From positions 59,387 to 123,386 of the forward strand of contig CAVVNL010000003.1 of assembly GCA_963749565.1 (NCBI GenBank): a DNA stretch of 64,000 bases. Reading direction: 5' to 3'. The translations under genes and the position numbers were made by a program. How positions within the stretch are numbered: position 1 is the first letter of the stretch; every line of letters begins with the position of its first letter. The DNA comes from an uncultured Acidobacteriota bacterium. GTDB lineage: Bacteria; Acidobacteriota; Vicinamibacteria; Vicinamibacterales; CAVVIG01. Below the pieces are notes generated by a model, which did not search any database, was not told where the DNA came from, and worked only from the letters and a program-made list of their open reading frames with translations. This document shows, in pieces, positions 18,846 to 44,806 of the stretch.

Positions 18846-18894
18846 ATTGTACGGTCAAGCAGCGAGTGTGGGCGGCACAAAAAACCGTCAAAAA
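18846..18894 (-). promoter_or_regulatory. Conserved promoter element TTGACG-N4-TTTG plus TACAAT -10
   Basis: TTGACG at 18891-18886 and TACAAT at 18851-18846; same architecture at four other promoters. Confidence 0.6.
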
Positions 18895-18915
18895 CCTGCA
18901 CAATAGTCGGCCTCA

Positions 18916-20160
18916 ATGGAGTACTCCTTCGGCCCGTTCCTGCTCGACACCAGCGCGTCGCGTTTGGCGCGTGAGGGCGTCGAGATCCGGCTCAGGCTGC
19001 GGGCGTTCCACAGCCTGCGCGTGTTGCTGCAGCATCACAGCGAGTTCGTCGGCTACGAGGCGATGATGGCGGAGGCGTGGGAAGGCATTCATGTGTCGCG
19101 CCACACCATCGACGTGACACTCGCCGACGTCCGAAAATGTCTCGGCGAGTACGGCCGCTGGATCGTCCACCGCCCCAAGTTCGGGTATGCGCTCGAGGTG
19201 CCGCGATCCGACGAGCTCGTCCGTCAGGGATGGCATTTCTGGAGCCAGCGGACGCGCACCGGCTGTGAGCGCGCGATCGAGTGTTTCAAGCGCGCCATCG
19301 GGGAGAGTCCATCGGATTTCCGCGCGTTCGAGGGTCTCTCGGCCTCGTACCTGGCGCTGGCGATTTTTGGGATTCGGCCACCGCTCGAGGTGTATCCGCG
19401 CTTTCTCGAAGCGCACGAACAGGCGGCGATCCTCAGCGGCCTTCGCCCCGAGCTGCGCTGTAACCGCGCCTTTGGTCTGTGCGTATTCGAGCGGCGCCAC
19501 GCCGAGTCGGAGGCCGAGTTCCTGCGGGCGCTCGAGGAAAAACCTGCGCTGGGATCGACGTATGTGCGGCTCGGCATACTGTACGGCGCGCGTGGCCGGT
19601 TCGATGAGGCGCTCGACATTCTCGGCCGCGGCCGCCAGGCCGACCCGCTGCTGCCAACGCTCGCGGGCGCGGAAGTCCTGGTCCGTTGCTGGAAGCGCGA
19701 CTTCCAAGCGGCCGTTTCGGTAGGCAGCAAGTCCGTCGAGTTGCACCCGTACCTTCACATCGTGCGGGTCGATTACGCGCAGGCGCTCCAGTGTGCCGGA
19801 CGACTCGAGGACGCGCTCGCGCAGTATCAGGTGGCGTCGATCCTGTCGCTTGGCCTGCCGTGGCAGCGGGCGCTTGAAGGCGCGTGTCGAGCCAGGTTGG
19901 GCCAGGACGGCGACGCGCGCGCGATTTTGGAAGGTCTGGAGACCCTGCGCCGGTCGGAGTACGTGGACGCGTACCACATGGCAGTGTTTCGCCTGGCGCT
20001 CGGCGAGCGCGATCGAGCGCTCGACGAGCTCGAGCGTGCGTCGGCCGAGAACTCGGCGTGGATATACGCGATGGACGTCGATCCAAAGTTGGATCCGCTG
20101 CGCGGCGCCGCGCGGTTTCGCCGCCTCCAGAAGCGCGCTCGTGAATTTGCGATCCCATGA
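18916..20160 (+). CDS. Transcriptional regulator, OmpR/PhoB-type winged-helix plus TPR repeats
   Basis: YSFGPFLLD..L.R.G.EIRL..LRVLL..AW.GIHVS...IDV..ADVRKCLG....I.HRPKFGY, followed by TPR-like helices and the DPKLDPLR tail. Confidence 0.88.
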   Translation: MEYSFGPFLLDTSASRLAREGVEIRLRLRAFHSLRVLLQHHSEFVGYEAMMAEAWEGIHVSRHTIDVTLADVRKCLGEYGRWIVHRPKFGYALEVPRSDELVRQGWHFWSQRTRTGCERAIECFKRAIGESPSDFRAFEGLSASYLALAIFGIRPPLEVYPRFLEAHEQAAILSGLRPELRCNRAFGLCVFERRHAESEAEFLRALEEKPALGSTYVRLGILYGARGRFDEALDILGRGRQADPLLPTLAGAEVLVRCWKRDFQAAVSVGSKSVELHPYLHIVRVDYAQALQCAGRLEDALAQYQVASILSLGLPWQRALEGACRARLGQDGDARAILEGLETLRRSEYVDAYHMAVFRLALGERDRALDELERASAENSAWIYAMDVDPKLDPLRGAARFRRLQKRAREFAIP

Positions 20161-21881
20161 CGAGCTGCTTTTTCCTGGTCCGGCCGACGGCCCCGCAGGA
20201 CGTTTTCACGCCAGAGGACCTGCGCGAGGAGCACGTCGCGATCGTCCGGATGATCGACGAGTTCTGGACGCGGGATATCTCGCCGAATCTAGCGGCGATG
20301 CATCGCAAAGAGCCCGGCGTTCTGGCGAGACTGCTGCGGAAGGCCGTCGAGCTGGGGCTGCCGGGCATTTCCATTCCCGAGGCCTTTGGCGGAATGGAGC
20401 TGGACCTCGCGTCGGTGATGGTGGCAGAAGAGGCCCTGGCTCGCGATGCCTCGTACTCCGTGACCCTGGGCGGTCAGGCAGGGATTGGCGCATGGCCGAT
20501 CGTTTACTTCGGCAGCGACGACCAGAAGGGAAGGTATCTGCCTCGCCTCGCTGCCGCAGAGATGATCGCTGCGTACGCACTGTCGGAACCTCAAGCTGGA
20601 TCGGACGCCTTGGCGATTCGGACGCGTGCACAGCTCACGCCCGACAGCACGTGCTACATCCTGAACGGACAGAAGGCGTGGATCACGAACGGGGGCATCG
20701 CGGATCTCTTCATCGTCTTCGCCAAGGTCGAGGACACTCACTTCACGGCGTTCATCGTCGAGAGGGGTTTCGCGGGCGTGAGCACGGGCGCCGAAGAAGC
20801 GAAGATGGGACTCCACGGGAGCTCGACGACTCCGCTTTTCCTCGACAACGTAGCAGTCCCTGTCGCGAACGTCCTCGGTGAAGTGGGCCGCGGTCACGCG
20901 ATCGCGTTCAACGTCCTCAATCTCGGGCGGCTGAAGGTCGGTTCTTACGCGGTCGGCGCATCGAAGGATGTGCTGAGCACGTCCCTCAGGTACGCGAAAT
21001 CACGAGTGGCATTCGGTGGTCCGATCGGCGCTCTCGGCCTGATACGCCAGAAGCTCGCTGATATGGCGGTCCGGCTCTATGCCACGGAATCGATGGTCTG
21101 GCGGGTCGTCGGGCTGATCGAAGGAGCCTCAGCGACCACAAGGAACGGTGAACCAGGTCGGCTCGAAGCCGCCAGGGAGTTCGCGGCCGAGTGTGCGATG
21201 GTCAAAGTATATGCCTCGGAGGCGCTCGGGTATATCGTCGATGAGGGCGTGCAGATTCACGGCGGCTACGGGTACCACCGTGACTACCTGGTCGAGCGCG
21301 CCTACCGAGATGCACGTGTCTATCGGATATTCGAAGGAACCAACGAGATCAATCGGCTGCTCATCGGGAGGGCGCTGCTGAAGCGCGCCGCCTGCGGCGA
21401 ATCGGAGTTGATGTCGACGGTCCAGGAAATCAGACGAGGATCGACACCCGACGCTATTAGGGCGCGAGAGGATCGAGCCTCGAACGATCCGGTGACAGCA
21501 GGAAAGGAGCTGTTCCGGCTGGCGCTTGGCGCCGCCCTCGACGTCTACGGAAGTGGGCTGGAGAGAGAGCAGTCACTGCTGGCGACTCTTTCTGATATGG
21601 CGATAGACGTCTTTGCGATGGAATCGAGCAGCCTCCGGCACCAAAAACTCTCCCGATCGGATAGGGGCGCCAATGCCGCCGACATGACGAGTGTGCTCGT
21701 TCGCGAGTCTCTTCGCCATCTCGAGACCGCGGCCCTGACGATCCTGAGCGCATGCCCGGGGGTCGACCCGGCGTATCAGACAAAGGTTCGTCTGCTCGCG
21801 GCGCGCGAGATGGTCAACGTCGTCCGGTTGCAGCAGAGTATTGCCGGGCGACTCCTGACCGCCGAGCGGTTCGTCGTCTGA
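20157..21881 (+). CDS. Acyl-CoA dehydrogenase (long, FadE/AcdA type)
   Basis: AYALSEPQAGSDA, LNGQKAWITNG, KMGLHGSST, VQIHGGYGY and RIFEGTNEINR; ATGA overlap with the regulator. Confidence 0.95.
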   Translation: MTSCFFLVRPTAPQDVFTPEDLREEHVAIVRMIDEFWTRDISPNLAAMHRKEPGVLARLLRKAVELGLPGISIPEAFGGMELDLASVMVAEEALARDASYSVTLGGQAGIGAWPIVYFGSDDQKGRYLPRLAAAEMIAAYALSEPQAGSDALAIRTRAQLTPDSTCYILNGQKAWITNGGIADLFIVFAKVEDTHFTAFIVERGFAGVSTGAEEAKMGLHGSSTTPLFLDNVAVPVANVLGEVGRGHAIAFNVLNLGRLKVGSYAVGASKDVLSTSLRYAKSRVAFGGPIGALGLIRQKLADMAVRLYATESMVWRVVGLIEGASATTRNGEPGRLEAAREFAAECAMVKVYASEALGYIVDEGVQIHGGYGYHRDYLVERAYRDARVYRIFEGTNEINRLLIGRALLKRAACGESELMSTVQEIRRGSTPDAIRAREDRASNDPVTAGKELFRLALGAALDVYGSGLEREQSLLATLSDMAIDVFAMESSSLRHQKLSRSDRGANAADMTSVLVRESLRHLETAALTILSACPGVDPAYQTKVRLLAAREMVNVVRLQQSIAGRLLTAERFVV

Positions 21882-21899
21882 GTGCCTCCGCGACTTGCA

Positions 21900-22760
21900 C
21901 TACAGCCGGAACAGCCGCATCGCGTTTTCTTTCAAGATGAGCGGCCGCACCTCGTCGCGGATGCCGATCTTCTCGAAATCCGCCAGCCAGCGATCGGGCG
22001 TCAGCAACGGGTAGTCGGAGCCGAACAGCACCTTGTGCTTGAGAAGCGTATTCGCATACTGGACGAGCGTCGGCGAGAAGTACTTCGGCGACCAGCCCGA
22101 AAGATCAATGTACACCTGCGGCTTGTGCAAGCAGATGGAGATCGCCTCGTCCTGCCACGGGAAGGACGGATGCGCCATGACGATCGGCATGTCGGGGAAA
22201 TCGACCGCCACATCGTCGATCGGCATCGGATGGCCATACTTCAGCCTGACGCCGCCGCCGCCAGGCATGCCGGTCCCGATCCCGCTGTGCCCGGTGTGAA
22301 AGAGGACGGGAAGGCGCGCTTCCGCGAAGACTTCATAGAGCGGATACGCGACGCGATCGTTCGGAAAAAACTGCTGCAGCGGCGGATGAAGCTTCAAGCC
22401 CCGAACGCCGCCCCCCGCAACCAACCGCCGCGCCTCGCGCACCGCATCACCGCCTCGCGTCGGATCGAGGCTGACGAACGCCATCGCGATATCTGCGTTC
22501 TGCGCGGCGAACTCGATGACGGCGTCGTTTGAGACCTGGGGCCGTCCGGTGAGCTTCTCGTCGACCGTGAACACGACACAGCCAGTCTGGCGCGAGCGGT
22601 AGTAGTCGGCGAGCGTGTTCCAGTCGCGATCGCCGCCCGCGCCGAAGTACTTCGCGGCCGCCTCGTCGGCGTCCACGCGGCTGCCGGTGTGTTCGAGATG
22701 GACGTGGACGTCGATCGCCGACAATCGTTCGACGTCAAACCCGGTCGGAGTCGATCTCAT
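21900..22760 (-). CDS. couO: Amidohydrolase-2 family, 4-hydroxyphenyl-beta-ketoacyl-CoA hydrolase (CouO-like)
   Basis: AIDVHVH, GLKLHP, FHTGHSGIGTGMPGGGG.RLKY, AHPSFPWQDEA, DLSGWSPKYF and LFGSDYP; ATGA-coupled to fcs. Confidence 0.85.
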   Translation of the reverse strand: MRSTPTGFDVERLSAIDVHVHLEHTGSRVDADEAAAKYFGAGGDRDWNTLADYYRSRQTGCVVFTVDEKLTGRPQVSNDAVIEFAAQNADIAMAFVSLDPTRGGDAVREARRLVAGGGVRGLKLHPPLQQFFPNDRVAYPLYEVFAEARLPVLFHTGHSGIGTGMPGGGGVRLKYGHPMPIDDVAVDFPDMPIVMAHPSFPWQDEAISICLHKPQVYIDLSGWSPKYFSPTLVQYANTLLKHKVLFGSDYPLLTPDRWLADFEKIGIRDEVRPLILKENAMRLFRL

Positions 22761-24587
22761 GCCGCGATGACTCGCGATGACGGCGGCGACGCGAAAAGCT
22801 CGTCGACCCACTGCCTTCGATTCTGCAATACCGCTTTTTGATTCAAGGAGCCCTTGTCAGTCATTTCGCGGGCGTCGATGGATGGCGGCAGGTCGAGGAG
22901 AAGCGCGCGCGCCACGAAGGTCGAGCTGCCTGTGCTTTGAGCGGCGAGCTCCGTCAGTAGGCGCCGGAACACCGTCTAGCACGCGCGGATCGTCGAGCAC
23001 GCGACGAACGGGCGCGTCGCCGGGCATATCAGGGCACAGGCCGCGACAGAGCTGGACGTTCGGAAACACGAGGGCCGCGACACACTCATGATCGTGGCCC
23101 GCGATCACCACGTCCTGCACGTAACCGCCTGCATGCGCGAGCATGTTGGCGCGCAGCGGTCCCACGCTGACCCACGTCCCGGTCGACAGCTTGAAGTCCT
23201 CGGCGAGCCGTCCATCGAAGATGAGGCCCTTCGCAGGATCGTCGGGATCGACGTACCGCATCGCGTCGCCCATCTTGTAGAAGCCTTCTTCATCGAACGC
23301 CTCATCGGTGAGCGACTGATCGTGCCAATATCCCGGCGTGATGTTCGGCCCGCGGACGCGCGCCTCGATCTTGCCGCCGGCCGGCGCCAGCTTGAGCTCC
23401 ATGCCGGGAGCCGGGAAGCCCACGAACCCGGCCCACGCGCCGGCCTGCCCCGTGCACAGCGCGAACGGCGCGGTTTCGGTAGCGCCGAGTCCGGTCACCC
23501 AGAGGAGCTCGTCGCCGCACGTTTCAACGGCCAGTTCCTGCAGCTCGTCGAACACGCGCTGGGTCATTCCCGCCGCGGCATAAAAGAACAGCTTCAGCCT
23601 GGAAAAGAACCGCTCGCGCAGAACCGCGTCGGCGCGCAGGTACGGCAGGAGCATGATGTAGGTCCGCGGCACGGTGAAGTGCGCCGTCGCGGCTATCTCG
23701 CGCAGGTTCCGCACCGTCGTCTCGAACGCGCCCGGCACAGGACGTCCCTCGTCGATGTAGAATGTGCCGCCGTTGTAGAGGACCAGCCCGAAGTTGTGGT
23801 TGCCGCCAGCCGTGTGGTTCCACGGCAGCCAGTCGCAGAGCACCGGCGGCTCGTCGGCGAGGAACGGCATCACGCTGCGAATCATCTCCTGGTTCGAGCA
23901 CAGCATTCGCTGCGTGTTGATCACGCCCTTCGGCCGGCCTGTCGACCCCGACGTGAAAAGGATCTTGGCGATCGTGTCCGGGCCCACCCGCGCGTGCGCC
24001 TCGTCGACGGCGGCGGTCGCAGGCGTGCGCTCGATCTCGGCAAACGGCGTGGCGGGCAATCCGTCCGGCGCCGACGCTGACACGATCAACTCGGTGCCGG
24101 ACGGCAGGACCGAACGAAGGGCCGCCTCATACGAGGCGCCTTCCGCCGCGAATACCAGGCCGGGTTTGACGCGATCGAAGATCTGACCGAGCGTACCGTA
24201 CTCGCGCGCCTGCAGCGAGTACGCCGGAGCGATCGGCGCGTACAACACGCCGGTGTGCATGGCGGCAAGCGCCAGCAGCGCATGTTCGATGCTGTTGCCC
24301 GACAGAATCAGGAGCGGCCGTTCGCTGGACAGGCGCCGGGCGAGCAACGCCTGCGACACGCGGCGCACCATGCCCAGCGTCTCCGCGTAGGTCAACGAGC
24401 GCCACTGGCCGGAGGGATCTCTCTGTGCGAGAAACGCGCGATCGCCCGCGCGATCCGCCCAATACTCGAGACGCTCGGTAAGACTCACGGGATACGCGTC
24501 CAGTCGATCACGTGATTGCAGGTAGACGATGCCATCCGGGCCGTAACGGACCGCCACGTTCGCGGACGCCATTCTGACCGATCTCAT
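22757..24587 (-). CDS. fcs: Feruloyl-CoA synthetase (frameshift at ~22973)
   Basis: LFTSGSTGRPKGV, DWLPWNHTAGGNHN, GLGATETAP, DGRLAEDFKLSTGTWVSVGPLR; the C-terminus STGSST..EMTDKGSLNQ is in the next frame. Confidence 0.9.
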
Positions 24588-24615
24588 TCGCCTTGTGTCG
24601 CGTGCGGAATCGCCA

Positions 24616-26772
24616 TCAGGATCGGCTCGCTGGCGTCTCAATCGCCTTCGGCATGGCGTCAAACTCGCGGAAAGTCGACCCCTCGTGCGCAAGTCGCACG
24701 AGCAGCGGCGCCGGTTTCCATCGGGGGCCGAGCTCGCGATGAAACGCCGCGATCCGATCGTGAATTCTGGCAAGGCCAATGGTGTCCGCGTAGAACATCG
24801 GGCCGCCCCGATGGGCAGGAAAACCATATCCGGTCAAGTAAATGACGTCGATGTCGGGCGCCCGCGATGCGACGGCTGCTTCAAGCACGCGCGCGCCCTC
24901 GTTGATGAGCGCGTAGATTGTCCGCTCGAGGATTTCCTCGTTGCTGATGTGCCGGCGGCGAATACCCGCGGACGAAGCGACCGACTCGATCAGATCGAGT
25001 ACCTCGGGATCCGGAATGGGCCTTCGATCGTCGCCGTAGCGGAACCACCCCTTGCCGGTCTTCTGTCCGAGCCGGCCAATCTCGACGAGCTTGTCCGCCG
25101 CGAGTGGTTTTCGCGCGCCGGGCTCCTCGAACTGGTGGAGCTCCTGCCGGACGCGCCAGGCCACATCGAGTCCGCCCATGTCGTCCACGGCGAAAATGCC
25201 CATCGCCATGCCCCAATCCGTGAGCACGCCGTCCACCTGCTCCGGCGTGGCGCCTTCCTCGGCCAGAAACTGCGCCTCGTACATATACGGGAACATCATC
25301 CGATTGCCGACAAACCCCGGACCATTGCGAACGACCACTCCGACTTTGCCGAGGCGCTTCGCAAACGCCAACGCGGTCGCCAGGACCTCGTCCCCTGTCG
25401 CATGGCCTCGAACGATTTCGAGCAGGCGCATCACGTGCGCCGGGCTGAAGAAGTGCAAACCGACGACCGACGCCGGCCGGTTGGTTGCCGCCGCGATTTG
25501 ATCGATATCCAGCGTGGATGTGTTTGTCGCCAGCACGCAGCCTGGCCTCGCCGAGCGATCGATGTCCGCAAAGACCTGCTGTTTCAACGCCAGGTTTTCG
25601 AACACGGCCTCGATGATCAAGTCGGCCGTCGCACAGCCGTCGTATCCGACACAACTGTGAATCAACCCGAGACGCTCGCCGACGGCCTCGGCGGACAACC
25701 GGCCGCGCGTGACCGACGACTCGTAATTCCGCCGAATGGCGGCGAGCCCTCGGTCGACCGCTTCCGGCGTGATGTCGCTGAGTGTGACTCGAAAGCCAGC
25801 GTTGGCGCAGGCCATGGCGATGCCCGCCCCCATGGTCCCCGCTCCAATGATCGCGACTGCCTTGATATCGACTACCTGCGCGTCTTTCCGAAGGCCGGGC
25901 ACTTTGGCGACGTTCCGCTCAGCGAAAAACGCGTGTACAAGCGCCCGCGCCTGATCCGAACGCACGCATTCGAGCGAGATCGCGCGCTCGCGGCGGCACC
26001 CCTCGTCGAACGGAAGCGTCACTGCCGCTTCGATCGCCTCGATGGCCCGCAGTGGCGCCGTTTGATGGCGCCGCGTGTTTCGCGCCATATCGCGGCCCTT
26101 CGCAAAGAGCGGCGCGTTCGATTCAGCCGTCCCCAGTTTGTCGGCGCGGTCGCGGGTTTTGGGATGCGGCGCGCCGAGGCGAACGACGTCCCGCGCAAAC
26201 GCGACGGCGCCGCTTGTCAGGTCTCCTTCGATCACCTGATCGATCAATCCGGCTCGCTTCGCGTCCTCGGCGCCAATCGGCTTGCCGGTCACGCACATCT
26301 CGATGGCTTTCTCCACGCCCACGAGTCGCGTCAGCCGCTGCGTCCCTTCTGCCCCTGGAATGATTCCGAGATTGACCTCTGGTTGACCCATCCGAGCGTC
26401 CGGAACCGCGACACGATAGTGCCCGGCCATCGCAAGTTCCAGCCCGCCGCCGAGTGCGCTGCCGTGTATCGCCATGACGATCGGTTTGGGAACCTCTTCC
26501 ACGAGGCGCAGCAGATCGTGAAGGTCCGGCGGTTCGGCGGTGCTCCACGCGGCCTGTTCCAGCTCCTTGATGTCGGCGCCGGCGACAAACGTCCTGCCGG
26601 CGCCCACGACGACGATGGCATCGATCGCCGCATCGTCGGCGAGCCGTGCGACGACGGCCGGCAGTTCCTCACGGACCTCGCGGCTGAGGGCGTTGACCGG
26701 CGGATTGTCGATCTGCACGACGGCAATGCCGTCCATGGTTGTGACGGAGACTTGCTTCATTTGCGCGGACAT
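24616..26772 (-). CDS. Bifunctional enoyl-CoA hydratase / 3-hydroxyacyl-CoA dehydrogenase (FadB/PimF-like)
   Basis: NPPVNAL, FVAGADIKE, ALGGGLELA, PEVNLGIIPG; GAGTMGAGIA, LATNTSTL, GLHFFSPA and GFVGNR. Confidence 0.95.
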   Translation of the reverse strand: MSAQMKQVSVTTMDGIAVVQIDNPPVNALSREVREELPAVVARLADDAAIDAIVVVGAGRTFVAGADIKELEQAAWSTAEPPDLHDLLRLVEEVPKPIVMAIHGSALGGGLELAMAGHYRVAVPDARMGQPEVNLGIIPGAEGTQRLTRLVGVEKAIEMCVTGKPIGAEDAKRAGLIDQVIEGDLTSGAVAFARDVVRLGAPHPKTRDRADKLGTAESNAPLFAKGRDMARNTRRHQTAPLRAIEAIEAAVTLPFDEGCRRERAISLECVRSDQARALVHAFFAERNVAKVPGLRKDAQVVDIKAVAIIGAGTMGAGIAMACANAGFRVTLSDITPEAVDRGLAAIRRNYESSVTRGRLSAEAVGERLGLIHSCVGYDGCATADLIIEAVFENLALKQQVFADIDRSARPGCVLATNTSTLDIDQIAAATNRPASVVGLHFFSPAHVMRLLEIVRGHATGDEVLATALAFAKRLGKVGVVVRNGPGFVGNRMMFPYMYEAQFLAEEGATPEQVDGVLTDWGMAMGIFAVDDMGGLDVAWRVRQELHQFEEPGARKPLAADKLVEIGRLGQKTGKGWFRYGDDRRPIPDPEVLDLIESVASSAGIRRRHISNEEILERTIYALINEGARVLEAAVASRAPDIDVIYLTGYGFPAHRGGPMFYADTIGLARIHDRIAAFHRELGPRWKPAPLLVRLAHEGSTFREFDAMPKAIETPASRS

Positions 26773-26787
26773 GGGCTTTAGAAGATA

Positions 26788-28131
26788 TTAGGGCATCGCC
26801 GCGGAATCGGTCCTGTACGGCCGGCAGGTGAACAGGAACGCGAGAAGCATCAGCGTAGCCGCCATCGCGGTCGAGAGCGCGAGAGACACGCCAATCATCA
26901 GCTCCGACCGCCACACGTTGTCGCTGATCCAGGCGGGCACGAAGGGGCCCAGCGTCTGGCCGCCCAGGTTCAGGATCAGCAGAAACAGCGCGGAGATCTG
27001 GCCGCGCACCTGGTTGGGCAGGATCCACTGCAGCGCCGCATAGACCACCCCCATCGGGAGTCCGAGGAAGAACAGCGCCGGCGCGAACCAGATCAACATC
27101 ACGTCACTTGTCCGCGCGGTCAGCGCCAGAGTGAACAGCACGCCGATGCCGATGGCGCTGATGATTCCGACCCGCATCGGCGCGTCGGCGATGCCGAGCT
27201 TCCGCCAGCGGTCCGTCAGCGCGCCTCCGGCAAACATGCCGAGACAACCGAAGCAGACGATCAGAATGCCCAGGCGATTGCCCGCCTGGCTCGGCGTCCA
27301 ACCGTGAACCCGCTGCAGCACTGAGGGTGTCCAGAACAGGATGCCGTATGCGCACATCGACTGGAAGACCATCGCGATCGAAATACCGATGATCGACTGC
27401 CATCGTGCGCGTCCCTGCTCGACCACCTGACGCATCGTGAGCGCGGACGGACGCCCCTCGCGGTCGAGCAGCAGATCGCGGCGCGCCGGCTCGCGCAGCG
27501 TCGCCACCCACGCGGCGATCAACAGGCCCGGGAGCCCCACGATGAGGAACGTCAGGCGCCAGGAGGCAACGGTGCCGAAGACGGGCAGGTCGATCGTGGG
27601 GACTTGGGTCGTCGCCTGCACCACGGTGCCGCCCACAAGGAGCGCAAGGCCGGAGCCGATGAAGATCCCCATCGAGTACACGCTCATCGCGCGCCCGAGA
27701 TGCCTTCTCGGAAACGAATCCGCAATCATCGAAAAGGCCCCCGGCGCCAGCGTCGCCTCGCCGACTCCGACACCCATGCGCGCGAAGAACAGCGACCAGA
27801 AGCTCTTTGCGCCGGCACACGACGTGGTCATGACCGACCAGACCAGCACGCCCACGGAAATGAGCCGACGCCGGTTCCATCTGTCGGCGATGCGCCCCAT
27901 CGGCAACCCGAGTGTTGTGTACAGGAGCGCGAACGCGAGCCCCTGCAACACCGATACGCGCGTATCGCTGATGCCGAGATCCCGCTTGATGGGCGCCACG
28001 AGCAGGCTGAGGATCTGGCGATCGACAAACGCCAGCGTGTAACAGACCATCAGCACGAAGAGCACGTACACGGGGTATCCAAGACGCAGCGGCTCGTCGA
28101 TTCTCGTCTCTGAGACTGGTGACGGCAACAT
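26788..28131 (-). CDS. MFS transporter (spinster-like)
   Basis: AFVDRQILSLLV, motif A GRIADRWNRR, RMGVGVGEA and ~12 hydrophobic segments. ATG at 28131 lies 7 nt after TAGAAT, suggesting a leaderless mRNA. Confidence 0.92.
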   Translation of the reverse strand: MLPSPVSETRIDEPLRLGYPVYVLFVLMVCYTLAFVDRQILSLLVAPIKRDLGISDTRVSVLQGLAFALLYTTLGLPMGRIADRWNRRRLISVGVLVWSVMTTSCAGAKSFWSLFFARMGVGVGEATLAPGAFSMIADSFPRRHLGRAMSVYSMGIFIGSGLALLVGGTVVQATTQVPTIDLPVFGTVASWRLTFLIVGLPGLLIAAWVATLREPARRDLLLDREGRPSALTMRQVVEQGRARWQSIIGISIAMVFQSMCAYGILFWTPSVLQRVHGWTPSQAGNRLGILIVCFGCLGMFAGGALTDRWRKLGIADAPMRVGIISAIGIGVLFTLALTARTSDVMLIWFAPALFFLGLPMGVVYAALQWILPNQVRGQISALFLLILNLGGQTLGPFVPAWISDNVWRSELMIGVSLALSTAMAATLMLLAFLFTCRPYRTDSAAMP

Positions 28132-28138: not shown

Positions 28139-28182
28139 ATTCTACCGGCGCAGGCAGTCCTCTTCGAACAAAGTTTCGGCAA
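28139..28182 (-). promoter_or_regulatory. Conserved promoter element TTGCCG-N4-TTTG plus TAGAAT -10
   Basis: Element begins 38 nt upstream of the -10 start, as at 35835 and 44805. Confidence 0.55.
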
Positions 28183-28244
28183 TCCCGGACGATAGGCCGC
28201 ATTAGCGGGGTGTCGGCGGTTAACGGACGGCGGCCGCGGGCCGC

Positions 28245-28520
28245 GTCGAACGATCGATCGCGAACTCGCTCTGTTTTGGCGGCTCCATCAACGGACGGCA
28301 GGTCGCCTTCGGCCGCGTGGTGAGCGATTACGCGGTCTTCGGCTATCTCTCTGACATCTTCGTGATTCCGGAGTGTCGCGGCCAGGCGATCGGCCGGCGG
28401 CTCGTGCGCGCGATGCTGGAACATCCGGATGTGGCGGGACTCAAAGTCGTGCTGCTGCGCACCCGCGACGCGCACGGGGTGCACCGCCCGTTCGGCTTCA
28501 AGGAGCTGCCTGACGCCTCT
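28245..28520 (+). pseudogene. 5'-truncated GNAT acetyltransferase
   Basis: VERSIANSLCFG..RQVAFGRVVSDYAVFGYLSDIFVIPECRGQAIGRRL..LLRTRDAHG..FGF; no start codon or N-terminus, and it reads on into the next gene. Confidence 0.7.
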
Positions 28521-28643
28521 ACGAAACTCGCCACTCGTCTGAAGGTCTGCCTCTCCGATCCTGGGGCGGTTCGCCTCACTTCCGTTCTGGCCGGACTCGG
28601 TGTACCCTCGTCGCGTCAGAACATGCCGGTAGGAGGAATAGTG

Positions 28644-31428: not shown

Positions 31429-31478
31429 TTTTGACGGTTTTTTTGCGGCTCTTCGTCACGGGCGCCGCGGATTATGAT
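31429..31478 (+). promoter_or_regulatory. Conserved promoter element TTGACG-N4-TTTTG plus TATGAT -10
   Basis: 15-nt exact reverse-complement match to 18879..18893; TATGAT at 31473. Confidence 0.6.
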
Positions 31479-34711: not shown

Positions 34712-35719
34712 CTAATCCTTGAGGAACCGGCGCGCAATCTCGACGTCGCACTTCTGGTTCGAGTGCGGCATGCCCGGACGATACTCGAGCCGTCCGGTCC
34801 ACTCGCCTAGCTGCGCGAGGTAGAGCGGATCCTCGACCGTCCCGGAGACGATCAGGCTCTTGCCGTCCTCGCTGAGGGTGAAGCGCTCGGTCAGCTTTTT
34901 CTGCGTGCTGCCCGGCACGTTCGTCGAGCTTCCCATTGGATGCTCGCTGAAGTTGGTGGTTTCGACGACGAGAGTCTTGCCCTCCCAGCGGCCGACCGAG
35001 TGCCCGTGCAGTGACGTCTGGCTGGCCGGTGGATGCGCACGGCCGTCGAGGTAGACGGTCCGGTCGGTGTCCATCCAGTCGGTCTTGATCAGCACGCGAT
35101 CCTTGTGCACCTCGATCGTCGTCGCGACAGGATAGAAGGTCACGAACGGAAGGCCGATCGGGACGCAGTCCTTCTGCGTCGTGGAGCGCGCATCCATCTT
35201 CGCGGACACCGCCTTCGCCGCGTCGGTGAGCACCCACTTCCGCGCCGAGCCCGTGAAGCCGCCGAAGCCCAGCGAGAACCAGGTCCCGGCGATGCTCGTG
35301 GCCGGCGTGGACACCGTGCCGTCGTAGACGCTGCGCGAGGAGATGTTCAGCGGCACGTACGCGCCGTCGCTCTTGACGAGATCGCGGCCGAGCAGGAGCT
35401 TCTCGGGCTCTCGGCGGCCCGGGTTGCCCGTAATGCTGACCACCTCGCCGACCTTGACCGAGTTGGCGTTGAACCCGAGCCCGTTCAGCACCGACGCGGC
35501 GCCCGCTTCGACTTCCATCGAGGTCACCGTGCCATCCGGTTTCTTCACGTCCAGCGTGAGGTAGACGTGCGGGTTGGCGAACCGGTACCTGGTGACGGTG
35601 CCCGTCACGGTCACCGTCTGCTGCGTGTTGAACGCCGCGGGGCTGTGGTGCGCCAGCACCGGCGCCGCGAGACCCAGTGTCACCAATGCGGCAAACGTGA
35701 ATCGAGCCATCGTGTTCAT
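34712..35719 (-). CDS. Secreted DUF6152 plus partner-domain fusion protein
   Basis: Signal peptide, AHHSPAAFN..ANPH..KVGEVVSITG; then IAGTW, DCVPIGLP, GHSVGRWEGKTLVVETT, LTERF, EDPLYL and QKCD. Confidence 0.85.
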   Translation of the reverse strand: MNTMARFTFAALVTLGLAAPVLAHHSPAAFNTQQTVTVTGTVTRYRFANPHVYLTLDVKKPDGTVTSMEVEAGAASVLNGLGFNANSVKVGEVVSITGNPGRREPEKLLLGRDLVKSDGAYVPLNISSRSVYDGTVSTPATSIAGTWFSLGFGGFTGSARKWVLTDAAKAVSAKMDARSTTQKDCVPIGLPFVTFYPVATTIEVHKDRVLIKTDWMDTDRTVYLDGRAHPPASQTSLHGHSVGRWEGKTLVVETTNFSEHPMGSSTNVPGSTQKKLTERFTLSEDGKSLIVSGTVEDPLYLAQLGEWTGRLEYRPGMPHSNQKCDVEIARRFLKD

Positions 35720-35791
35720 AGTCTGTCCCTTCATCCTTCCCGCCGCAGCCTCGGCGCTGTTGTCCTGATCCCTCTGACGAACTGGCGTCTC

Positions 35792-35836
35792 ATTATCGTC
35801 CGCGCTCGCGACAACGAGCCACAAAGATGCGTCAAA
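35792..35836 (-). promoter_or_regulatory. Conserved promoter element TTGACG-N4-TTTG plus GATAAT -10
   Basis: 38-nt offset between the element and the -10. Confidence 0.55.
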
Positions 35837-36041: not shown

Positions 36042-36175
36042 GGTCCGGCTGAAGCCGGATCTTGCGTACTGTCTTTACAGGTCGATGATCCTGAACGCCT
36101 CGCGGATGCCGTCGAGTCGGGTCCGGCCGAACCTTCGGCCGGACCTCCCACGGTCCGCGTGAAGCGGACACGACG
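36042..36175. repeat. Cluster of degenerate REP-like palindromes (GTCCGG..CCGGAC family)
   Basis: GGTCCGGCTGAAGCCGGATC, GTCCGGCCGAACCTTCGGCCGGAC and GGTCCGCGTGAAGCGGACACGAC. Confidence 0.7.
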
Positions 36176-36189
36176 ACGTACCGTGTTGT

Positions 36190-38367: not shown

Positions 38368-38380
38368 TTGGCTCCTCCTC

Positions 38381-38677: not shown

Positions 38678-38713
38678 GATCCCAGTCCTCCGGCAAGCGA
38701 CACCGAGGGTGAA

Positions 38714-40267
38714 TTATCTCGCGCTCAAGGTCTCGATCAACGCGATCGAGCTTGGTTTGGGCCTCGAGGGATGTGTGGCGAGGAAGACGCCCTCGGCCCA
38801 GACCATCGGCGTGCGCCCTTCCTTGTCCTTGACGTCGAGCTTCGCGCCCTTGTCCACCAGGAACCGGAGGATGTCGTCCGATCCCCTGTTGGCGGCGCCG
38901 TGGACCGCCGTCAGCCCCATCGAGTTGACGGCATTCACGTCCATCCCGAGCGAGTAGCAGAGCTCCACCGCTTCGAGCAACTTCTCGGCTCCCTCGTCGT
39001 AGGTCTGGTAGAAGACCCAGTTGACGCCCGCAGCGGCCATCAGGGCCGTGGTCCCCGCTACCGTCGGAATATGCGGGTCGGCGCCATGCGCGAGGAGCAG
39101 GCGCATCACGGTGACGTCGCCCGCCAGCGCCGCGGTCAGGAACGGCGTCTGACCGGTGAAGTCCACCCACGACAGCGAACCAACCCTCAGAAAGTGTCGT
39201 TTGAACGGCGGGACTTCCTTCGTTCTCACGTCGAGGTTGGCGCCCCGTTCGATCAGCACCTTGATCAGATCGAGAAACGGCTCGCGATCGATGCTGTTTT
39301 CCAGTGTGCCGGCGTCGAAGTCCTGATTGCGTGTTTCCACGGCCGACCACAGAGGCGTGCGGCCGTACCAATCGCTCGCGTGAATATCCGCCCCGCGGTC
39401 GATCAATAACAGGGCGACGTCGACATGATTATTGACGATCGCCGCGATCATCGGCGAGATACCGTTGGCATCGGCCTGGTTGATGTCCGCCCCGGCCTCG
39501 ACGAGCGTGCGCGCGATGTCGAGACGGCCGTCGCGCGCGGCATAGAGGAGCGGCGACAGCCCGCCTGGAATCGGGTTGCGCAACCCCCGCGCGGGCAATC
39601 CGCCCCGCACGATGCCGACCCCGTGTCCGAATCCCGGCACCGAATTCGGCAGGATCCACGACGGGGTGCCACCGACCCGGGTCGCCTCGTTCGGCTGCGC
39701 GCCATGGGCGAGCAGCAGTGTCACGATCTCGGGATGATTCTCCCGGACGGCCACCATCAGCGCGGTCTGCTGAAACGCCGGATCCCTGTCCTCGACCATC
39801 GCCCCGCGGTCGAGCAGCAACTTCACCGGGCCGCTGCTGCCCAGGCGCACCGCCGCCATCAGCGCGGTCTCCCCCGTCGGATCGGTGGAATTCGGATCGG
39901 CGCCCGCATCGAGCAGCAGCCGGATCATCGCCTCGTTACCGTTCGCGCAGGCGAGAAAGAGTGGCGTGATGCCGTATCGATTGGCGAGTGTGGCGTCTGC
40001 GCCGGCGCCGAGCAGCAGACGGGCGGTCGCGAGATCGTCCTCGCGCACCGACCAGTGCAACGCCGGCGTGCCATCCTTACCGAGCGCGTTGACATCCACT
40101 TTCTGCCCGAGCAGCACCCGGACGGCGGCACCGTCGTGCTTTCTCACCGCGTCCGCGAGCCGCGAATCGTTTTGCCCGGCCGCACTCACGCCGGGCACCG
40201 CCAGCAGCACGCCCACCAGCGACAAAATCGTTCTTGACCGACGGTTCCTCGTGGCTTTGCAGTTCAT
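38714..40267 (-). CDS. Secreted ankyrin-repeat protein
   Basis: Signal peptide; about ten G.TPL/TAL..A..G....LL..GAD repeats. Confidence 0.93.
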   Translation of the reverse strand: MNCKATRNRRSRTILSLVGVLLAVPGVSAAGQNDSRLADAVRKHDGAAVRVLLGQKVDVNALGKDGTPALHWSVREDDLATARLLLGAGADATLANRYGITPLFLACANGNEAMIRLLLDAGADPNSTDPTGETALMAAVRLGSSGPVKLLLDRGAMVEDRDPAFQQTALMVAVRENHPEIVTLLLAHGAQPNEATRVGGTPSWILPNSVPGFGHGVGIVRGGLPARGLRNPIPGGLSPLLYAARDGRLDIARTLVEAGADINQADANGISPMIAAIVNNHVDVALLLIDRGADIHASDWYGRTPLWSAVETRNQDFDAGTLENSIDREPFLDLIKVLIERGANLDVRTKEVPPFKRHFLRVGSLSWVDFTGQTPFLTAALAGDVTVMRLLLAHGADPHIPTVAGTTALMAAAGVNWVFYQTYDEGAEKLLEAVELCYSLGMDVNAVNSMGLTAVHGAANRGSDDILRFLVDKGAKLDVKDKEGRTPMVWAEGVFLATHPSRPKPSSIALIETLSAR

Positions 40268-40811
40268 TCTTGTCCTCCGAGCTGAGCACCTTTGAAGCTG
40301 CGCCCGGCGGCAGCCGCCGGGTAGCCGCTACCTGTGGTCGCCCTTTTCCCTGATTTCGCTGAACAGGCGCCGCATCCAGGGACTGTTTTCCTGGCAGATG
40401 TACTCCTCGACCACATTCGCATCCGAACTTCTCGGGTTGTGGCTGCGCCTTCGCTTTCCCGCCGGCCTGCTCGGGATAGTGCTGCGGGTCGCGGTTGCCC
40501 TCGAGGCACGCGAACTGGTACTGCTCGTAATCCTGCGCCATCCTGCGCCGCGATGCGCCGGAAGGTTTCTACGACCTTCCATGGTCCCGTGTACACCTTG
40601 GGGTCCTCGATGGTCGCCTCATAGCGGATCGTATTCGCGTCAGCGAGCGTGAAGCGTTCGACCACGTGGATGGCGTCGGAATGGATGTTTCCGGCCGTAT
40701 GAACTCCGCCGTGAACGAGTGATGGGCGAATGCCGGCCCACCGATCGACGCGGCCAGAAGCATCCCGACACCGACGATGAATGCAGCCGGTGTCGCAGAT
40801 GTTGTCTTCAC
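40264..40811 (-). pseudogene. Mosaic of DUF6152 and partner-domain remnants
   Basis: Signal peptide plus AHHSFTAEF; then HSDAIHVVERFT..IEDPKVYTGPW, YQFACLEGN and EEYICQEN in different frames. Confidence 0.7.
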
Positions 40812-40884
40812 TGAACTTTTCTCCTGTTGAGGTCCGCCCTCAACACAGACAGTACAGAGCCCCGACCCTCTCGGGTCGGCTTCT

Positions 40885-42204
40885 TCAGATCGTAATCATC
40901 CCGTTGCTATCGCCAAGCTTCGCCGTGGGGACGTCGAACTTATCGAGGATGGCGACCAGCAGATTGCCCATCGGCGTCTTGGTCGGATTCACAAGGTGCC
41001 GCCCGCCCTTCAGCCGGCCCGATGCGCCCCCGGCCAGAACGATCGGCAGGTCGGTGTGATTGTGCTGGTTCCCGTCGCTGATGCCGCTCCCCCACAGCAC
41101 CATCGAGTGATCCAGCAGCGTTCCGTCGCCATCGGGCGTGGCGCGCAGCTTCTCCAAGAAATAGGCAAACAGGGTGGTGTGGTAGGTGTTCAAGACCGCG
41201 AACCGGTCCTTGTTCTCCTGCACGTTCGAATGGTGCGACAGGATGTGGAACGCGTCCCGGATACCGCTCTTCGGATAGACGGCGTTGCTCAACTCCTTCG
41301 CCATCAGCAGGGTCGAGACGCGCGTGATGTCAGCCTGCCAGGCAATCGCCTGAAGGTCGAACATCAACTTCACGTGCGCTTCGACGTCCGTGGGCACGCC
41401 CGTGGGCGCGCTCGGGATGTCGAGATCGTCCGACAGCTGCTCGCCGACCTTCTGCACGCGCCGCTCGATTTCCCGCACATCGGTCAGGTACTGATCCATC
41501 CGGATCCGGTCGCCCGCGGGCAACTTCCGCTGGAGAGACGACGCCTCGGCCGTCACCGAGTCGAGCAGGCTCAGCGACTGCTGCCGCCGCACCGCCCGCT
41601 GGGTCGCGGTGTTCCCGTCGCCGAACAGCCGCTCGAACACGACCTGCGGGTTGTTCTGCATCGGCAGCGGCGACGTGGGCCCCTGCCACGAAATCGTGTC
41701 CCGGTACGAGCAGCTCAGGCCGTCGCCGCAGTTCACGGTCGCCTCTTCGATCATCAACTCGAGCGACGGCAGCGGCGTCTCCTGGCCGATCTTCTGCGCG
41801 ACGAGCTGGTCGAGCGTGACGCCGAGATGCGGCTTCGCGCCGGTCTGCGCATGCGCCGCGCTCAAGAACGACGCGGCCGATCGGTTGTGGTTGGCCGTGG
41901 CGCCGCTTCCGTACGCCTGCGCATGCTCGAGGCCGCTGATCACGTTGATCTGACTGTGGAACGGCTTGAGCGGCTGGAGGATTTCCGAGAGCTCGAAGCC
42001 GGCGCCCTCGGTCGCCGGCGTCCACTTGGGCATGATCGCGCCATGCGGGAAGTAGATGCAGCCGAGCCGGGTTCGCGCCGCCGCCGCCGTCTGGGCCAGC
42101 GCCGCCGCGGCGGGGAGCATCGATTCGAGGAACGGCAACGCCAGCGTAACGCCGGCGCCATGCAGGAACGTGCGACGCGACAGGTGCATTTTCGAGATGA
42201 ACAT
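40885..42204 (-). CDS. DUF1552 (HXXSHH) family protein
   Basis: LSRRTFL..GVTLALPFLESM, IYFPHG, NPQVVFERLFG, DITRVST, HILSHH and DGNQHNH. Confidence 0.93.
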   Translation of the reverse strand: MFISKMHLSRRTFLHGAGVTLALPFLESMLPAAAALAQTAAAARTRLGCIYFPHGAIMPKWTPATEGAGFELSEILQPLKPFHSQINVISGLEHAQAYGSGATANHNRSAASFLSAAHAQTGAKPHLGVTLDQLVAQKIGQETPLPSLELMIEEATVNCGDGLSCSYRDTISWQGPTSPLPMQNNPQVVFERLFGDGNTATQRAVRRQQSLSLLDSVTAEASSLQRKLPAGDRIRMDQYLTDVREIERRVQKVGEQLSDDLDIPSAPTGVPTDVEAHVKLMFDLQAIAWQADITRVSTLLMAKELSNAVYPKSGIRDAFHILSHHSNVQENKDRFAVLNTYHTTLFAYFLEKLRATPDGDGTLLDHSMVLWGSGISDGNQHNHTDLPIVLAGGASGRLKGGRHLVNPTKTPMGNLLVAILDKFDVPTAKLGDSNGMITI

Positions 42205-42246
42205 TGATGGCTCCTCTAAACTGTCACTCCCGGGTCCCGGGTCTCA

Positions 42247-44667
42247 TTACGGTGCGCGTTGAGCCTCGAGCGTTGAAACGTCCTTCTTCATTCTCTTCTG
42301 AAACGGGTCGCTTTCGACGATGCCGAGCAACAGCGACGAGAACCGATTGTCATTCGCGGCGGCGCGCCGGGTAATCGCGCGCACGGTCGGCATGTCGGCG
42401 CCGTGGTCCACCGGGCGGCCGAGCGCGTAAATCAGCAGTTTTTCGGTGATGGTCGTCATCACCGCACCGGATCGGTCGAGCAGCGCTTGGCGAAGGTCAG
42501 CCGGACCGTTGAGCGGCGTGCCGTCGGCGAGCTGGCCGGACGAATCGATCGGCGCCTCGCCTTCCCGATCGCGCCAGGTGCCCACCAGATCGAAATTCTC
42601 CAAGGCGAAGCCCATCGGGTCCATCACCTTGTGGCACGACGCGCACACCGGATTCGCCCGGTGCGCCTCCAGGCGCTGCCGCAGCGTGACGGGCTTGACC
42701 GCCGGATCCTGCTCCAGATTCGTCTCGACGCCCGGGGGAGGCTCCGGAGGCGGCACGCCGAGCAGGTTCTCCAGGATCCATTTACCGCGGGACACCGGGG
42801 ACGTCCGCGTGGCGACCGAGGTCACCGTCAGAAAGCTGGACTGCCCGATCAACCCGCGGCGCGGACTCGCCGGGTCGAGCGGGACGCGACGGAAGTAGCT
42901 GCCCCGGACATCCGGGATGCCGTAGTGACGGGCGAGCCGTTCGTCCACGTACGTGAAATCGGCGTCGATCAGGTCGAGCAGGCTCCGATCCTCGCGGACG
43001 ATCGCGCTGAAGAGCATCTCGGTTTCGCGCCGGAACGCCTCGCGCAGGTTGTCGTTGAAATTCTTGGCGTCGGTTTGCACGCCCTCCAGTTCACGCAGGT
43101 ACAGCCACTGTCCGGCGAAGTTACTGATCAGCGCGTCCGACCTGGGATCCGCCAGCATCCGCCTGACCTGCCGCTCGAGCTCCTGCGGATCCCGAAGCCG
43201 ATTCTTGACGGCCGCGTCCAGCAGTTCGTCGTCGGGAATGCTGCTCCAGAGGAGGAACGACAACCGCGACGCCAGATCCACGTCGCTGATGCGATAGACC
43301 GTGCCGGCGGCAACGTTCGGCGGCTCTTCCTCGGCGCGGAACACGAACCGCGGCGCGACGAGCACCCGCGCGAGCGCCTGCTGAATCCCGTGCTCGAAGT
43401 CTTCTTCCTTGCGGCCCTGCTGATAAAACCCCATCAGGGTGTCGATCTCCGCGGCAGACACGGGCCCGCGATAGGCGCGGCGCGCCAGCGTGGTCACGAT
43501 CTGCCGGGCGCACGCGGTTTCATCAGCGGGCGCCTTGGGACGGCACACGAAGATCCGGCGCCGGCTGGGCGTGTCGCCGACGCCGGTCGCGTTGAACGGA
43601 CCGGTAATCGTGACGGTGTTGACACCGCCCGCCGGCGTGAACGCGGCATCGATCCGGAAGTCCGAGTAGATGTCGTCGACGCCCGCGCCCCGCAGCCGGT
43701 CGACGACCGCGGCGCCGATCACGTGCGGTCCGGCGGTGATCGGCAGGCGGAACGTGCGGGGATTGTCCACCTCGATCGTCTCGCCGTCGAGGGTGACGTC
43801 GATCGCGGCGCCGCCCGCGATCCCCCCGCCGCCTCCGCCGCCGCCGCCCACGTTGAACTCATATTCGGCATCCAGCGGAAACGTGTGCTGAATCAACAGG
43901 CCGCCACGGGTGCCGATCGGCAGCCCCTCGATGTGACGGTCCTGGGCCAGCCGGCCCGGGACTGAATACGAAATCTGGCTCGGGGCCAGGGTGCGATCGC
44001 CCACGGCCTGGCGACTGATCTTCATCGCCGCGGAGACGTACCCCTGAATGAGCGAGGGCGAGACGCTCAAGGCCTCCGCGATGTTGTCGAAGCCTTCGCT
44101 CGAGCCGTCCGCGGGAAGGAGTGTCGTCACGTCCACGTCCAACGCCAGCAGGTCGCGGATCGCGTTGGCGTACTCGTTCCGGTTCAGCCGGTGCAGCGCG
44201 GGGGTGGCGAGGTTCGCGCCCGGCACCGCGGCGCGATCGAGACTGGCTTCGAGCTGCGAGGCGAATCCGTCCAGGACCGCGCGCTCGGGGCGGCGGGCGC
44301 CGCCAGGGGGCATCATCCCCGTTCTGATCTTCCGAACGGCCTTCTCCCACGTCTCCGCGTCAGCGCCTACGCGCGTGATGTCCAGAGCGTCGAGCGCCAG
44401 TCCGGCGGTCTTCAACTGCTGGTTGTGACACGTGATGCAGGACCGCTTGAGAAACGCCGGATCGGGCGACGCGGTCTGTGCCGATGCGTTTTGTGCCGGT
44501 GCGGTCTGTGCCGCCGAGGTCCGGCCAACGCCGGACACGACATACCGACTGTGCGTCGCGTCTGACTTCGTGACCGCCGTAGCCTTGGCGGAGGTGGTTG
44601 GCCAGACCGTGACGAGCGGTACGACAACGAGCCAGGCAATCGCCAACGAAAAAAATCGTCGCATCAC
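42247..44667 (-). CDS. DUF1587/1595/1592/1588/1585 planctomycete-type cytochrome c protein
   Basis: CITCH..GMMPP, HRLNRNEYANAIRDLL, GFDN, LASRLSFLLWSSIPD, TSPVSRGKWIL, CASCH and GFALENFD. Confidence 0.93.
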   Translation of the reverse strand: MMRRFFSLAIAWLVVVPLVTVWPTTSAKATAVTKSDATHSRYVVSGVGRTSAAQTAPAQNASAQTASPDPAFLKRSCITCHNQQLKTAGLALDALDITRVGADAETWEKAVRKIRTGMMPPGGARRPERAVLDGFASQLEASLDRAAVPGANLATPALHRLNRNEYANAIRDLLALDVDVTTLLPADGSSEGFDNIAEALSVSPSLIQGYVSAAMKISRQAVGDRTLAPSQISYSVPGRLAQDRHIEGLPIGTRGGLLIQHTFPLDAEYEFNVGGGGGGGGGIAGGAAIDVTLDGETIEVDNPRTFRLPITAGPHVIGAAVVDRLRGAGVDDIYSDFRIDAAFTPAGGVNTVTITGPFNATGVGDTPSRRRIFVCRPKAPADETACARQIVTTLARRAYRGPVSAAEIDTLMGFYQQGRKEEDFEHGIQQALARVLVAPRFVFRAEEEPPNVAAGTVYRISDVDLASRLSFLLWSSIPDDELLDAAVKNRLRDPQELERQVRRMLADPRSDALISNFAGQWLYLRELEGVQTDAKNFNDNLREAFRRETEMLFSAIVREDRSLLDLIDADFTYVDERLARHYGIPDVRGSYFRRVPLDPASPRRGLIGQSSFLTVTSVATRTSPVSRGKWILENLLGVPPPEPPPGVETNLEQDPAVKPVTLRQRLEAHRANPVCASCHKVMDPMGFALENFDLVGTWRDREGEAPIDSSGQLADGTPLNGPADLRQALLDRSGAVMTTITEKLLIYALGRPVDHGADMPTVRAITRRAAANDNRFSSLLLGIVESDPFQKRMKKDVSTLEAQRAP
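44518..44608. repeat. REP-like element inserted in frame in the DUF1592 gene
   Basis: GGTCCGGCCAACGCCGGACACGAC resembles the 36042/36152 palindromes; the element encodes WPTTSAKATAVTKSDATHSRYVVSGVGRT. Confidence 0.7.
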
Positions 44668-44761
44668 AGCGAACGGTTCCCGGTCGCGTCAATAACCATA
44701 TGGTTGGATCCTCCGCTGCCCCCAGCGCCAGCTAAAGCGAGAAAAAGCAGGCTCCGTCAAG

Positions 44762-44806
44762 ATCCTAGGTCCAGTCCACAGGCGGCGGCTGCAAAAATCC
44801 GTCAAA
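44762..44806 (-). promoter_or_regulatory. Conserved promoter element TTGACG-N4-TTTG plus TAGGAT -10
   Basis: 38-nt offset; lies upstream of the DUF1592 operon. Confidence 0.55.

Follow-up and report, generated by a model that had tools for sequence, protein, structure and literature searches.

What recognises a short box that stands at a fixed distance from the -10 hexamer of several promoters? The question is raised by a 64,000-nucleotide stretch of an uncultured Vicinamibacterales bacterium (Acidobacteriota; contig CAVVNL010000003.1, positions 59,387 to 123,386; hereafter the window). The original prediction proposed a new regulon there: a TTGACG-N4-TTTG box at five promoters, bound by the winged helix-turn-helix (wHTH) protein with TPR repeats encoded at 18916, or by a similar factor, and controlling aromatic-acid catabolism together with uncharacterised DUF systems. 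We consider it highly probable that the box is the conserved operator of this adjacent cytoplasmic wHTH-TPR regulator, which would activate the promoters of its targets and repress its own. The features of the window are listed in Table 1.

The box in the window and in its genome

Recomputing the motif and its five offsets (40, 38, 42, 38 and 38) gave exactly the values claimed, and the 15 identical nucleotides attributed to two copies are common to those at 18891 and 31431. The pattern TTG[AC]CG-N4-TTTG has four copies in the window, all on the minus strand (18878-18891, 28169-28182, 35822-35835 and 44792-44805). The fifth copy (31431, plus strand) has an N5 spacer, one T more, as it had been written originally. 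Shuffled sequences contained 0.26 copies on average and two at most, and none of 100 shuffles had four, a test that is circular on its own because the pattern was derived from the same sites. An Rfam search gave no match.

The source genome (6.1 Mb, around 65% GC) contains 10 exact copies of TTGACG-N4-TTTG. Its TTGAC-to-minus-10 offsets peak at 22-24 (13, 17 and 21 counts), a distribution that rests on a rough purpose-made gene caller; the promoters of the tmRNA and of several tRNAs, judged by eye, have the canonical -35/-10 spacing. The box is thus rare, ordinary offsets are much shorter, and it is therefore not a general promoter feature. Hence, we rejected a general sigma-70 element: the motif is not ubiquitous ahead of housekeeping genes, and the claim that the site lies too far out for a -35 box, and so belongs to a regulator, was borne out.

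Association of the box with the regulator gene

The evidence for the pairing comes from other genomes. We fixed a search pattern beforehand, from the window and a few relatives, prior to reading the best 80 of 332 confirmed wHTH-TPR loci from metagenomes. It matched 44 of the 80 loci, with 65 boxes against one in the reversed control (453 kb). Sixty of the 65 boxes were at most 200 nt from the regulator gene and pointed outward, 53 of them upstream and seven downstream. When proteins were clustered, a box was found in 18 of 24 clusters at 80% identity and in all eight at 70%. Orthologues in other genera (G009, 56%; G004, 59%; L053, 63%; L054, 66%) have an adjoining box despite different neighbours. 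An order-wide search, which scored seven candidates per genome, gave an orthologue in three of 251 genomes; given that number of candidates, we replaced it by a search of the family. In a set of 118 family genomes, 12 of the 13 with the regulator contain the exact box TTTGACNNNTTTTTG, as do 9 of the 105 without it, and an outward box adjoined 12 of 13 orthologue loci against 0 of 26 loci of distant paralogues. These genomes and loci are kin, and the counts are therefore not independent. The box is thus conserved beside the orthologues of the regulator, a check that the original prediction had proposed.

We then scored the genome with a matrix trained on 44 foreign sites, excluding L068 and L069 as too close to the window. 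Its consensus is aTTTGACGnyTTTTTG, in which TTTG is repeated at an 11-bp period; the full TTTGAC...TTTGAC repeat occurs in G009 and others. Across the 6.1 Mb, its highest-scoring sites were, in this order, the four at 44805, 18891, 35835 and 31431 (Table 1), whereas the reversed-control matrix gave none above 19, one above 17 and five above 15. Four of the five promoters claimed are thereby retained, with scores of 21.3-27.9, and the fifth, at 28182, is not (3.0). Two further sites, C16:226733 (minus strand; score 17.8, -10 at 44) and C11:79579 (plus strand; 16.4, -10 at 42), score within the range of the reversed control and are candidates only. They precede a formate-dehydrogenase-like cluster and a cytochrome c-Vgb lyase-like gene, respectively.

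Several observations weigh against the pairing. In 30 of the 80 loci no outward site nearby reaches a score of 14, and the box-less loci fall mostly in one clade whose recognition helix is unchanged. A different motif is found in 20 of the 80; each of the seven inspected also has an IclR-like gene in divergent orientation. Genome G011 carries the regulator gene with no adjacent box, and G286 retains a mere remnant of it. In four genomes (G246, G344, G056 and G005; 89-100% complete, in 40-510 contigs) boxes precede typical targets and no full-length orthologue was found. Finally, the training sites of the matrix were all adjacent to a regulator gene. The clades come from a quick tree of 81 rows that excluded loci with in-frame stops or fewer than 330 residues; its box labels follow the strict pattern, so that weaker sites (L078, L080, L090, L091, L096, L129, L142 and L143) go unlabelled.

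The four genomes with boxes only, the box-poor clade and the many wHTH paralogues of these bacteria would fit a different factor, another paralogue or a global regulator, with the wHTH-TPR gene merely a co-controlled member of the regulon. Yet, the box tracks this gene on both sides while the neighbours change, the paralogue loci have no box, and no second regulator recurs in the box-bearing loci that we mapped. We regard a different binder as improbable. The pairing of operator and regulator is the part of our conclusion that we hold most firmly, as very likely, and the protein encoded at 18916, named first in the original prediction, is by this comparison of sequences the likely binder.

The second motif, GTGCGCTATACGCAAC..GTGTTGCA, lies at most 250 nt from the regulator gene (L086, L088, L093, L094, L097, L098, L133 and 13 more), in loci with GH10/GH43 genes. 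We take the divergent gene to be IclR-like from its sequence signature rather than from a family scan, and the motif is probably the IclR operator of a xylan locus.

Promoter geometry and self-repression

A total of 148 sites scored at least 18. Dereplication left 91, of which 71 lack a GTCAAG tail behind the box and are classed as lying outside the regulator's own promoter. The offset to the -10 over these 71 sites was 38 in 23 and 39 in 15; it fell at 37-43 in 44 sites, at 47-53 in eight and at 20-26 in one. The end of the box is 24-28 nt from the -10. None of the 44 sites with offsets of 37-43 matches TTGACA at four or more of six positions where a -35 would stand. Against this regularity, roughly five of the 71 are still relatives of one another, as copies of the 44805 box.

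If the -10 occupies -12 to -7 (start around 7 nt after it), the half-sites lie at about -51 to -46 and -40 to -37. Two winged helices would bind there head to tail, the promoter-proximal one recruiting RNA polymerase, most likely through the C-terminal domain of its alpha subunit (alpha-CTD), the route used by TcpP and ToxR. The -35-less promoters of genes for TonB-like receptors, for the ankyrin-DUF1592-DUF1552 module, for DUF6152-type and for other exported proteins would be activated in this way. Activation by the regulator is likely; for the alpha-CTD contact, the balance is slightly in favour. The alternative that TTGACG is a true -35, used by an unusual sigma factor or with a long spacer, has in its favour that TTGAC is the sigma-70 -35 core and keeps a tight distance to the -10. 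However, offsets of 38-39 are about 1.5 turns longer than the ordinary ones, and this reading accounts neither for the second half-site nor for the outward pairing with a single gene family. Alternatively, the box could be a repressor site at constitutive promoters, but weak activity is expected of promoters without a -35, and this agrees better with activation. We judge either option very improbable.

In some loci (L103, L106, L145, L159 and L161) the offset of the -10 for some boxes is 49-52, longer than the usual 38-39 by about a helical turn, which suggests a dependence on the face of the helix.

GTCAAG follows the box in 20 of the 91 sites. On the opposite strand it forms TTGAC-17 bp-CAAATT just before the start of the regulator gene. 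Because the tail places a putative promoter of the regulator on the opposite strand, we infer that these sites are a self-repression class, in which the box would cover the spacer and the -10 of the regulator's own promoter. This class is absent from the interpretation given in the original prediction, which did place one copy in the divergent promoter region of the regulator gene. That copy, at 18891, indeed overlaps the predicted regulator promoter on the opposite strand (Table 1), and a hexamer similar to CACAAT precedes the regulator ATG in L068, L069 and L070. The 18891 box could serve both activation and self-repression.

The regulator and known systems

The wHTH-TPR family counts 813 proteins at E<=1e-60 among 7,999 scored. 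In the structure model of the regulator (pLDDT 94.7) the winged helix begins at residue 2 and the TPR solenoid follows directly. The winged helix matches PF00486 (Trans_reg_C) with 28.6 bits, above the cut-off of 26.2; Trans_reg_C and TPR are its only Pfam families, to which NCBIfam adds TPR_END_plus. At E<=0.1 the Pfam scan listed 12 families, none of them a receiver, BTAD or NTPase domain, and no transmembrane helix was found (maximum 19-residue hydropathy 1.28). The recognition-helix residues W55, H63, T64, V67, T68 and R73 are invariant in all 62 aligned members. Two predictions of a homodimer scored 0.00, which weighs neither way.

By fold, the winged helix resembles the KdpE, VanR and CpxR domains (Z around 15; for the DNA-binding domain of KdpE, Z 15.1, root-mean-square deviation 1.9 over 95 residues), and the best sequence match among solved winged helices is the DNA-binding domain of Escherichia coli CadC (PDB 5ju7, E 9.6e-11). 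CadC is anchored in the membrane and KdpE and CpxR have receiver domains; the regulator has neither. The best-ranking folds for the TPR part include domain III of MalT (1hz4; Z 20.2, deviation 5.2, 307 aligned) and the Rap protein of phage phi105 with its peptide (8rte; Z 19.7, deviation 4.8, 303 aligned), both ligand-sensing superhelices. These matches, at 10-14% identity, are tied with unrelated TPR scaffolds and thus show no function; Foldseek against the PDB returned generic TPR scaffolds only, and the ESM Atlas only automatically named wHTH-TPR clusters. The TPR groove may hold a ligand, a cytoplasmic small molecule that is probably imported or released by the target system, and we give a small-molecule signal an even chance.

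The proposed mechanism is itself of a known kind, represented in Vibrio cholerae by TcpP and ToxR, which act on the promoters of toxT and ompU. Like the regulator, both have an OmpR-type winged helix without receiver. TcpP binds TGTAA-N6-TGTAA repeats of 11-bp period, with protomers that cover -52 to -43 and -41 to -35 and an alpha-CTD contact (PMC12802830, in part). The tandem half-sites here, at about -51 to -37, match the -52 to -35 of TcpP under the start position assumed above. The spacing W68-S74-R86 of TcpP equals that of W55-S61-R73 in the regulator, a comparison of residue numbers without alignment, and the ToxR site TTTTGAT resembles the TTTGAC half-site (PMC11358694, in part). Unlike TcpP, ToxR and CadC, the regulator has no transmembrane helix or periplasmic sensor and carries a cytoplasmic TPR solenoid instead; its targets, uptake and exported DUF genes, also differ from those of TcpP and ToxR. 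One residue speaks against the parallel: the position equivalent to F72 of TcpP (W+4, by spacing only) is His in the regulator, and over 78 loci it is H in 45, F in 17, V in 7 and Y in 5, so that only 22 have F or Y. The alpha-CTD contact would therefore not be of the same chemistry as in TcpP.

OmpR and PhoB had been the original analogy. Their winged helix and an 11-bp direct repeat are present, whereas the geometry is closest to TcpP/ToxR, not PhoB, and the regulator lacks the N-terminal receiver of these response regulators. HilA-type proteins have C-terminal TPR-like repeats and use a TTTCAT direct-repeat box near -45. HilA of Salmonella and EilA/YgeH of E. coli are, like the regulator, cytoplasmic activators of the OmpR/ToxR family (PMC7232297 and PMC4210603, each in part), and differ from the system described here in box, phylum and targets. 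No HilA model was among the 10 NCBIfam hits of the regulator at E<=0.05, a scan that included no pairwise comparison. SARPs such as Streptomyces AfsR also join an OmpR-type DNA-binding domain to helical repeats, and bind direct repeats at promoters whose -35 is poor; these repeats overlap the -35 and stop 8 nt short of the -10 (PMC11301090, in part). We rejected a SARP-type position, given the longer distance between box and -10 and the single site with a -10 at 20-26. Unlike SARPs, the regulator has no BTAD or NTPase hit.

Targets of the predicted regulon

TonB-like receptors are the most frequent target across the family. In the 80 loci, 53 genes come first behind a box. Of these, 25 match the TonB-like protein of the window, seven its ankyrin protein, four its DUF6152-associated proteins, and one each its VOC and acyl-CoA dehydrogenase (ACAD) proteins. 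The other 15 match no protein of the window; GH10, GH43 and alpha/beta hydrolases are among those that were scanned. Judged by eye, most targets begin with a signal-peptide-like sequence. Boxes also precede the same targets far from the regulator gene (18 kb in G291; 37 kb in G181, of another family) or on other contigs (G327, G280, G004 and G324). A box was found in 6 of 12 TonB-like loci from genomes with the regulator and in 1 of 17 from the others. The proposal that uncharacterised DUF systems are targets thus finds support in sequence, since TonB-like, DUF1592/DUF1552 and DUF6152 genes recur behind putative operators.

Two results count against this regulon. The same genome has a second VOC-TonB and ankyrin-DUF1592-DUF1552 cluster without a box (C17:677154-685341), and none of 12 tannase-orthologue loci has a box within 1.5 kb upstream, although one is third in a box-led run. 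The second cluster has no regulator gene either. Near-identical further copies of the TonB-like gene stand at the start of a neighbouring contig (C16:1-12000).

Some genes look frameshifted when compared with homologues: the TonB-like gene (14397-17487), the VOC gene (17630-18708), the C-terminus of the acyl-CoA synthetase (22857-24572) and a lactonase (46652-47919). These are either assembly indels or decay; a frameshift is the probable cause of the short VOC protein.

Table 1. Features of the window discussed in the text.
Feature	Position	Strand	Remarks
TonB-dependent-receptor-like outer-membrane protein	14397-17487	-	CarboxypepD_reg N-terminus; split, 15337-17487 and 14397-15371
VOC/glyoxalase-fold protein	17833-18708	-	First in the operon behind 18891 box; N-terminus signal-like; short relative to homologues
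Predicted -10 TACAAT of 18891 site	18846-18851	-	Offset 40
Box TTTGACGGTTTTTTG	18878-18892	-	Score 26.9; predicted activator site, VOC-TonB-like operon
CACAAT, predicted regulator -10	18899-18904	+	11 nt before ATG, 6 nt from 18891 box
wHTH-TPR regulator, 414 aa	18916-20160	+	OmpR/ToxR-type winged helix 1-97, TPR solenoid 99-410; likely box binder
ACAD, amidohydrolase, acyl-CoA synthetase, ECH-3HCDH, MFS cassette	20157-28131		Beside regulator, outside core regulon
Doubtful site TTGCCGAAACTTTG	28169-28182	-	Score 3.0; TAGAAT 28139-28144, offset 38, before MFS gene
Box TTTGACGGTTTTTTTG	31430-31445	+	Score 21.3; predicted -10 TATGAT 31473-31478, offset 42
Tannase/feruloyl-esterase family protein, exported	31576-33339	+	Boxed in window
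Exported DUF6152 fusion protein	34712-35734	-	Predicted target of 35835 box
Box TTTGACGCATCTTTG	35822-35836	-	Score 21.6; predicted -10 GATAAT 35792-35797, offset 38
DUF1592 (PSD/PSCyt), DUF1552 (HXXSHH), small open reading frame, ankyrin protein	38714-44667	-	Recurrent target cluster
Box TTTGACGGATTTTTG	44792-44806	-	Score 27.9, best of genome; predicted -10 TAGGAT 44762-44767, offset 38
Regulator-gene 3'-end remnant, 21 nt	44810-44830	-	90% match to 20128-20148; adjoins 44805 box

Origin of the copies and a possible common pathway

The 44805 box is a former downstream flank of a regulator gene, because a 21-nt remnant of the 3' end of that gene precedes it. In L056/G286, boxes of the 35835 and 44805 types flank a collapsed regulator gene, the 35835 type head to head. 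Hence, some copies in the window are displaced flanks of gene copies, and the five are not fully independent. We looked for such an origin of the 31431 box and did not find it. The original interpretation did not include an origin from gene flanks.

One could see in the boxes non-functional leftovers of duplication, or the terminal inverted repeats of a mobile cassette. The regulator gene stands between two boxes in inverted orientation, a remnant of the gene adjoins the 44805 box, and relatives have duplicated gene ends. But the regulator protein has no transposase match in the Pfam and NCBIfam scans, the box and its distance to the -10 are conserved in loci whose proteins are as little as 46% identical, although the bases in between vary, and boxes are found far from any gene copy. 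On these three grounds we rejected insertion-sequence ends, and we consider leftovers or mobile repeats extremely unlikely.

Retaining the box as an operator, we tentatively raise a broader possibility, which we think less probable than its opposite: that the wHTH-TPR family, as one-component sensors with a TPR-groove ligand as inducer, controls one envelope pathway in soil Acidobacteria and that its regulon grows by promoter capture. To this pathway would belong a TonB-like importer, the module of DUF1592, DUF1552 and ankyrin proteins, and proteins of the DUF6152 type. In promoter capture, copies of the regulator flank would be inserted before new operons, after which the gene decays and the box remains. 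If true, a single inducible substrate would connect three long-standing DUF families. DUF1592 and DUF1552 (PSD/PSCyt) are described as of unknown function (PMC5615132, in part); with DUF6152 proteins, they are placed here in a predicted regulon with one family of TonB-like receptors. Soil Acidobacteria of the Vicinamibacterales type have many winged-helix/TPR regulators, for which a literature term search, supplements excluded, found no described binding site. One family of them thus gains a precise, testable predicted operator and promoter layout. Paired with the regulator, a box-reporter could serve in a search for the inducer, and the inducer would point to the substrate of the DUF systems.

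Aromatic catabolism and the site at 28182

The original prediction also had the same regulator co-activate aromatic-acid (feruloyl-CoA) catabolism through the site at 28182, with ferulate or feruloyl-CoA as candidate signals. Several facts agree with it. The TAGAAT of this site is at exactly offset 38, with an ATG 7 nt past it as claimed, and the site is kept in G001 and G003 (DNA around 97% identical). The catabolic cassette abuts the regulator gene, and the tannase/feruloyl-esterase gene is strongly boxed in the window and belongs to a box-led run in G323. However, the site lacks three Ts that are kept in 43, 41 and 40 of the 44 training sites, and equally weak sites with a -10 number 10 at offsets 38-39 against 3-8 at control offsets. 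Its score is background even with its -10, and we rejected it as a firm site. The MFS orthologues in G291, G016, G290 and G008 have no box, the fcs, fadB and ACAD genes occur in one of the 80 regulator loci, and the duplicated box on the ACAD side has no -10 in G001, G003 and L068. Control of aromatic catabolism by this regulator is therefore unlikely, and ferulate or feruloyl-CoA as its specific signal less likely still.

We infer instead that the cassette, whose acyl-CoA synthetase is PRK12582-like (below the cut-off), is a recent insertion beside the regulator gene. This is because it lies between two copies of the regulator 3' end and box in G001 and G003, occurs in a single locus of the 80, and is absent from the order regulator gene, box, ankyrin gene seen in L069, L070, L071, L076 and others.

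A dispersed repeat of about 45 nt (28184-28240, plus strand) lies directly upstream of the 28182 site. It has around 14 other copies in the genome, several of which lie near transposase-like open reading frames, and presumably resembles an IS91/ISCR-type end. Further on (28317-29420, plus strand), a GNAT acetyltransferase fragment, likely a pseudogene remnant, shares its reading frame with an exported protein that lies downstream and whose true start is probably at 28644.

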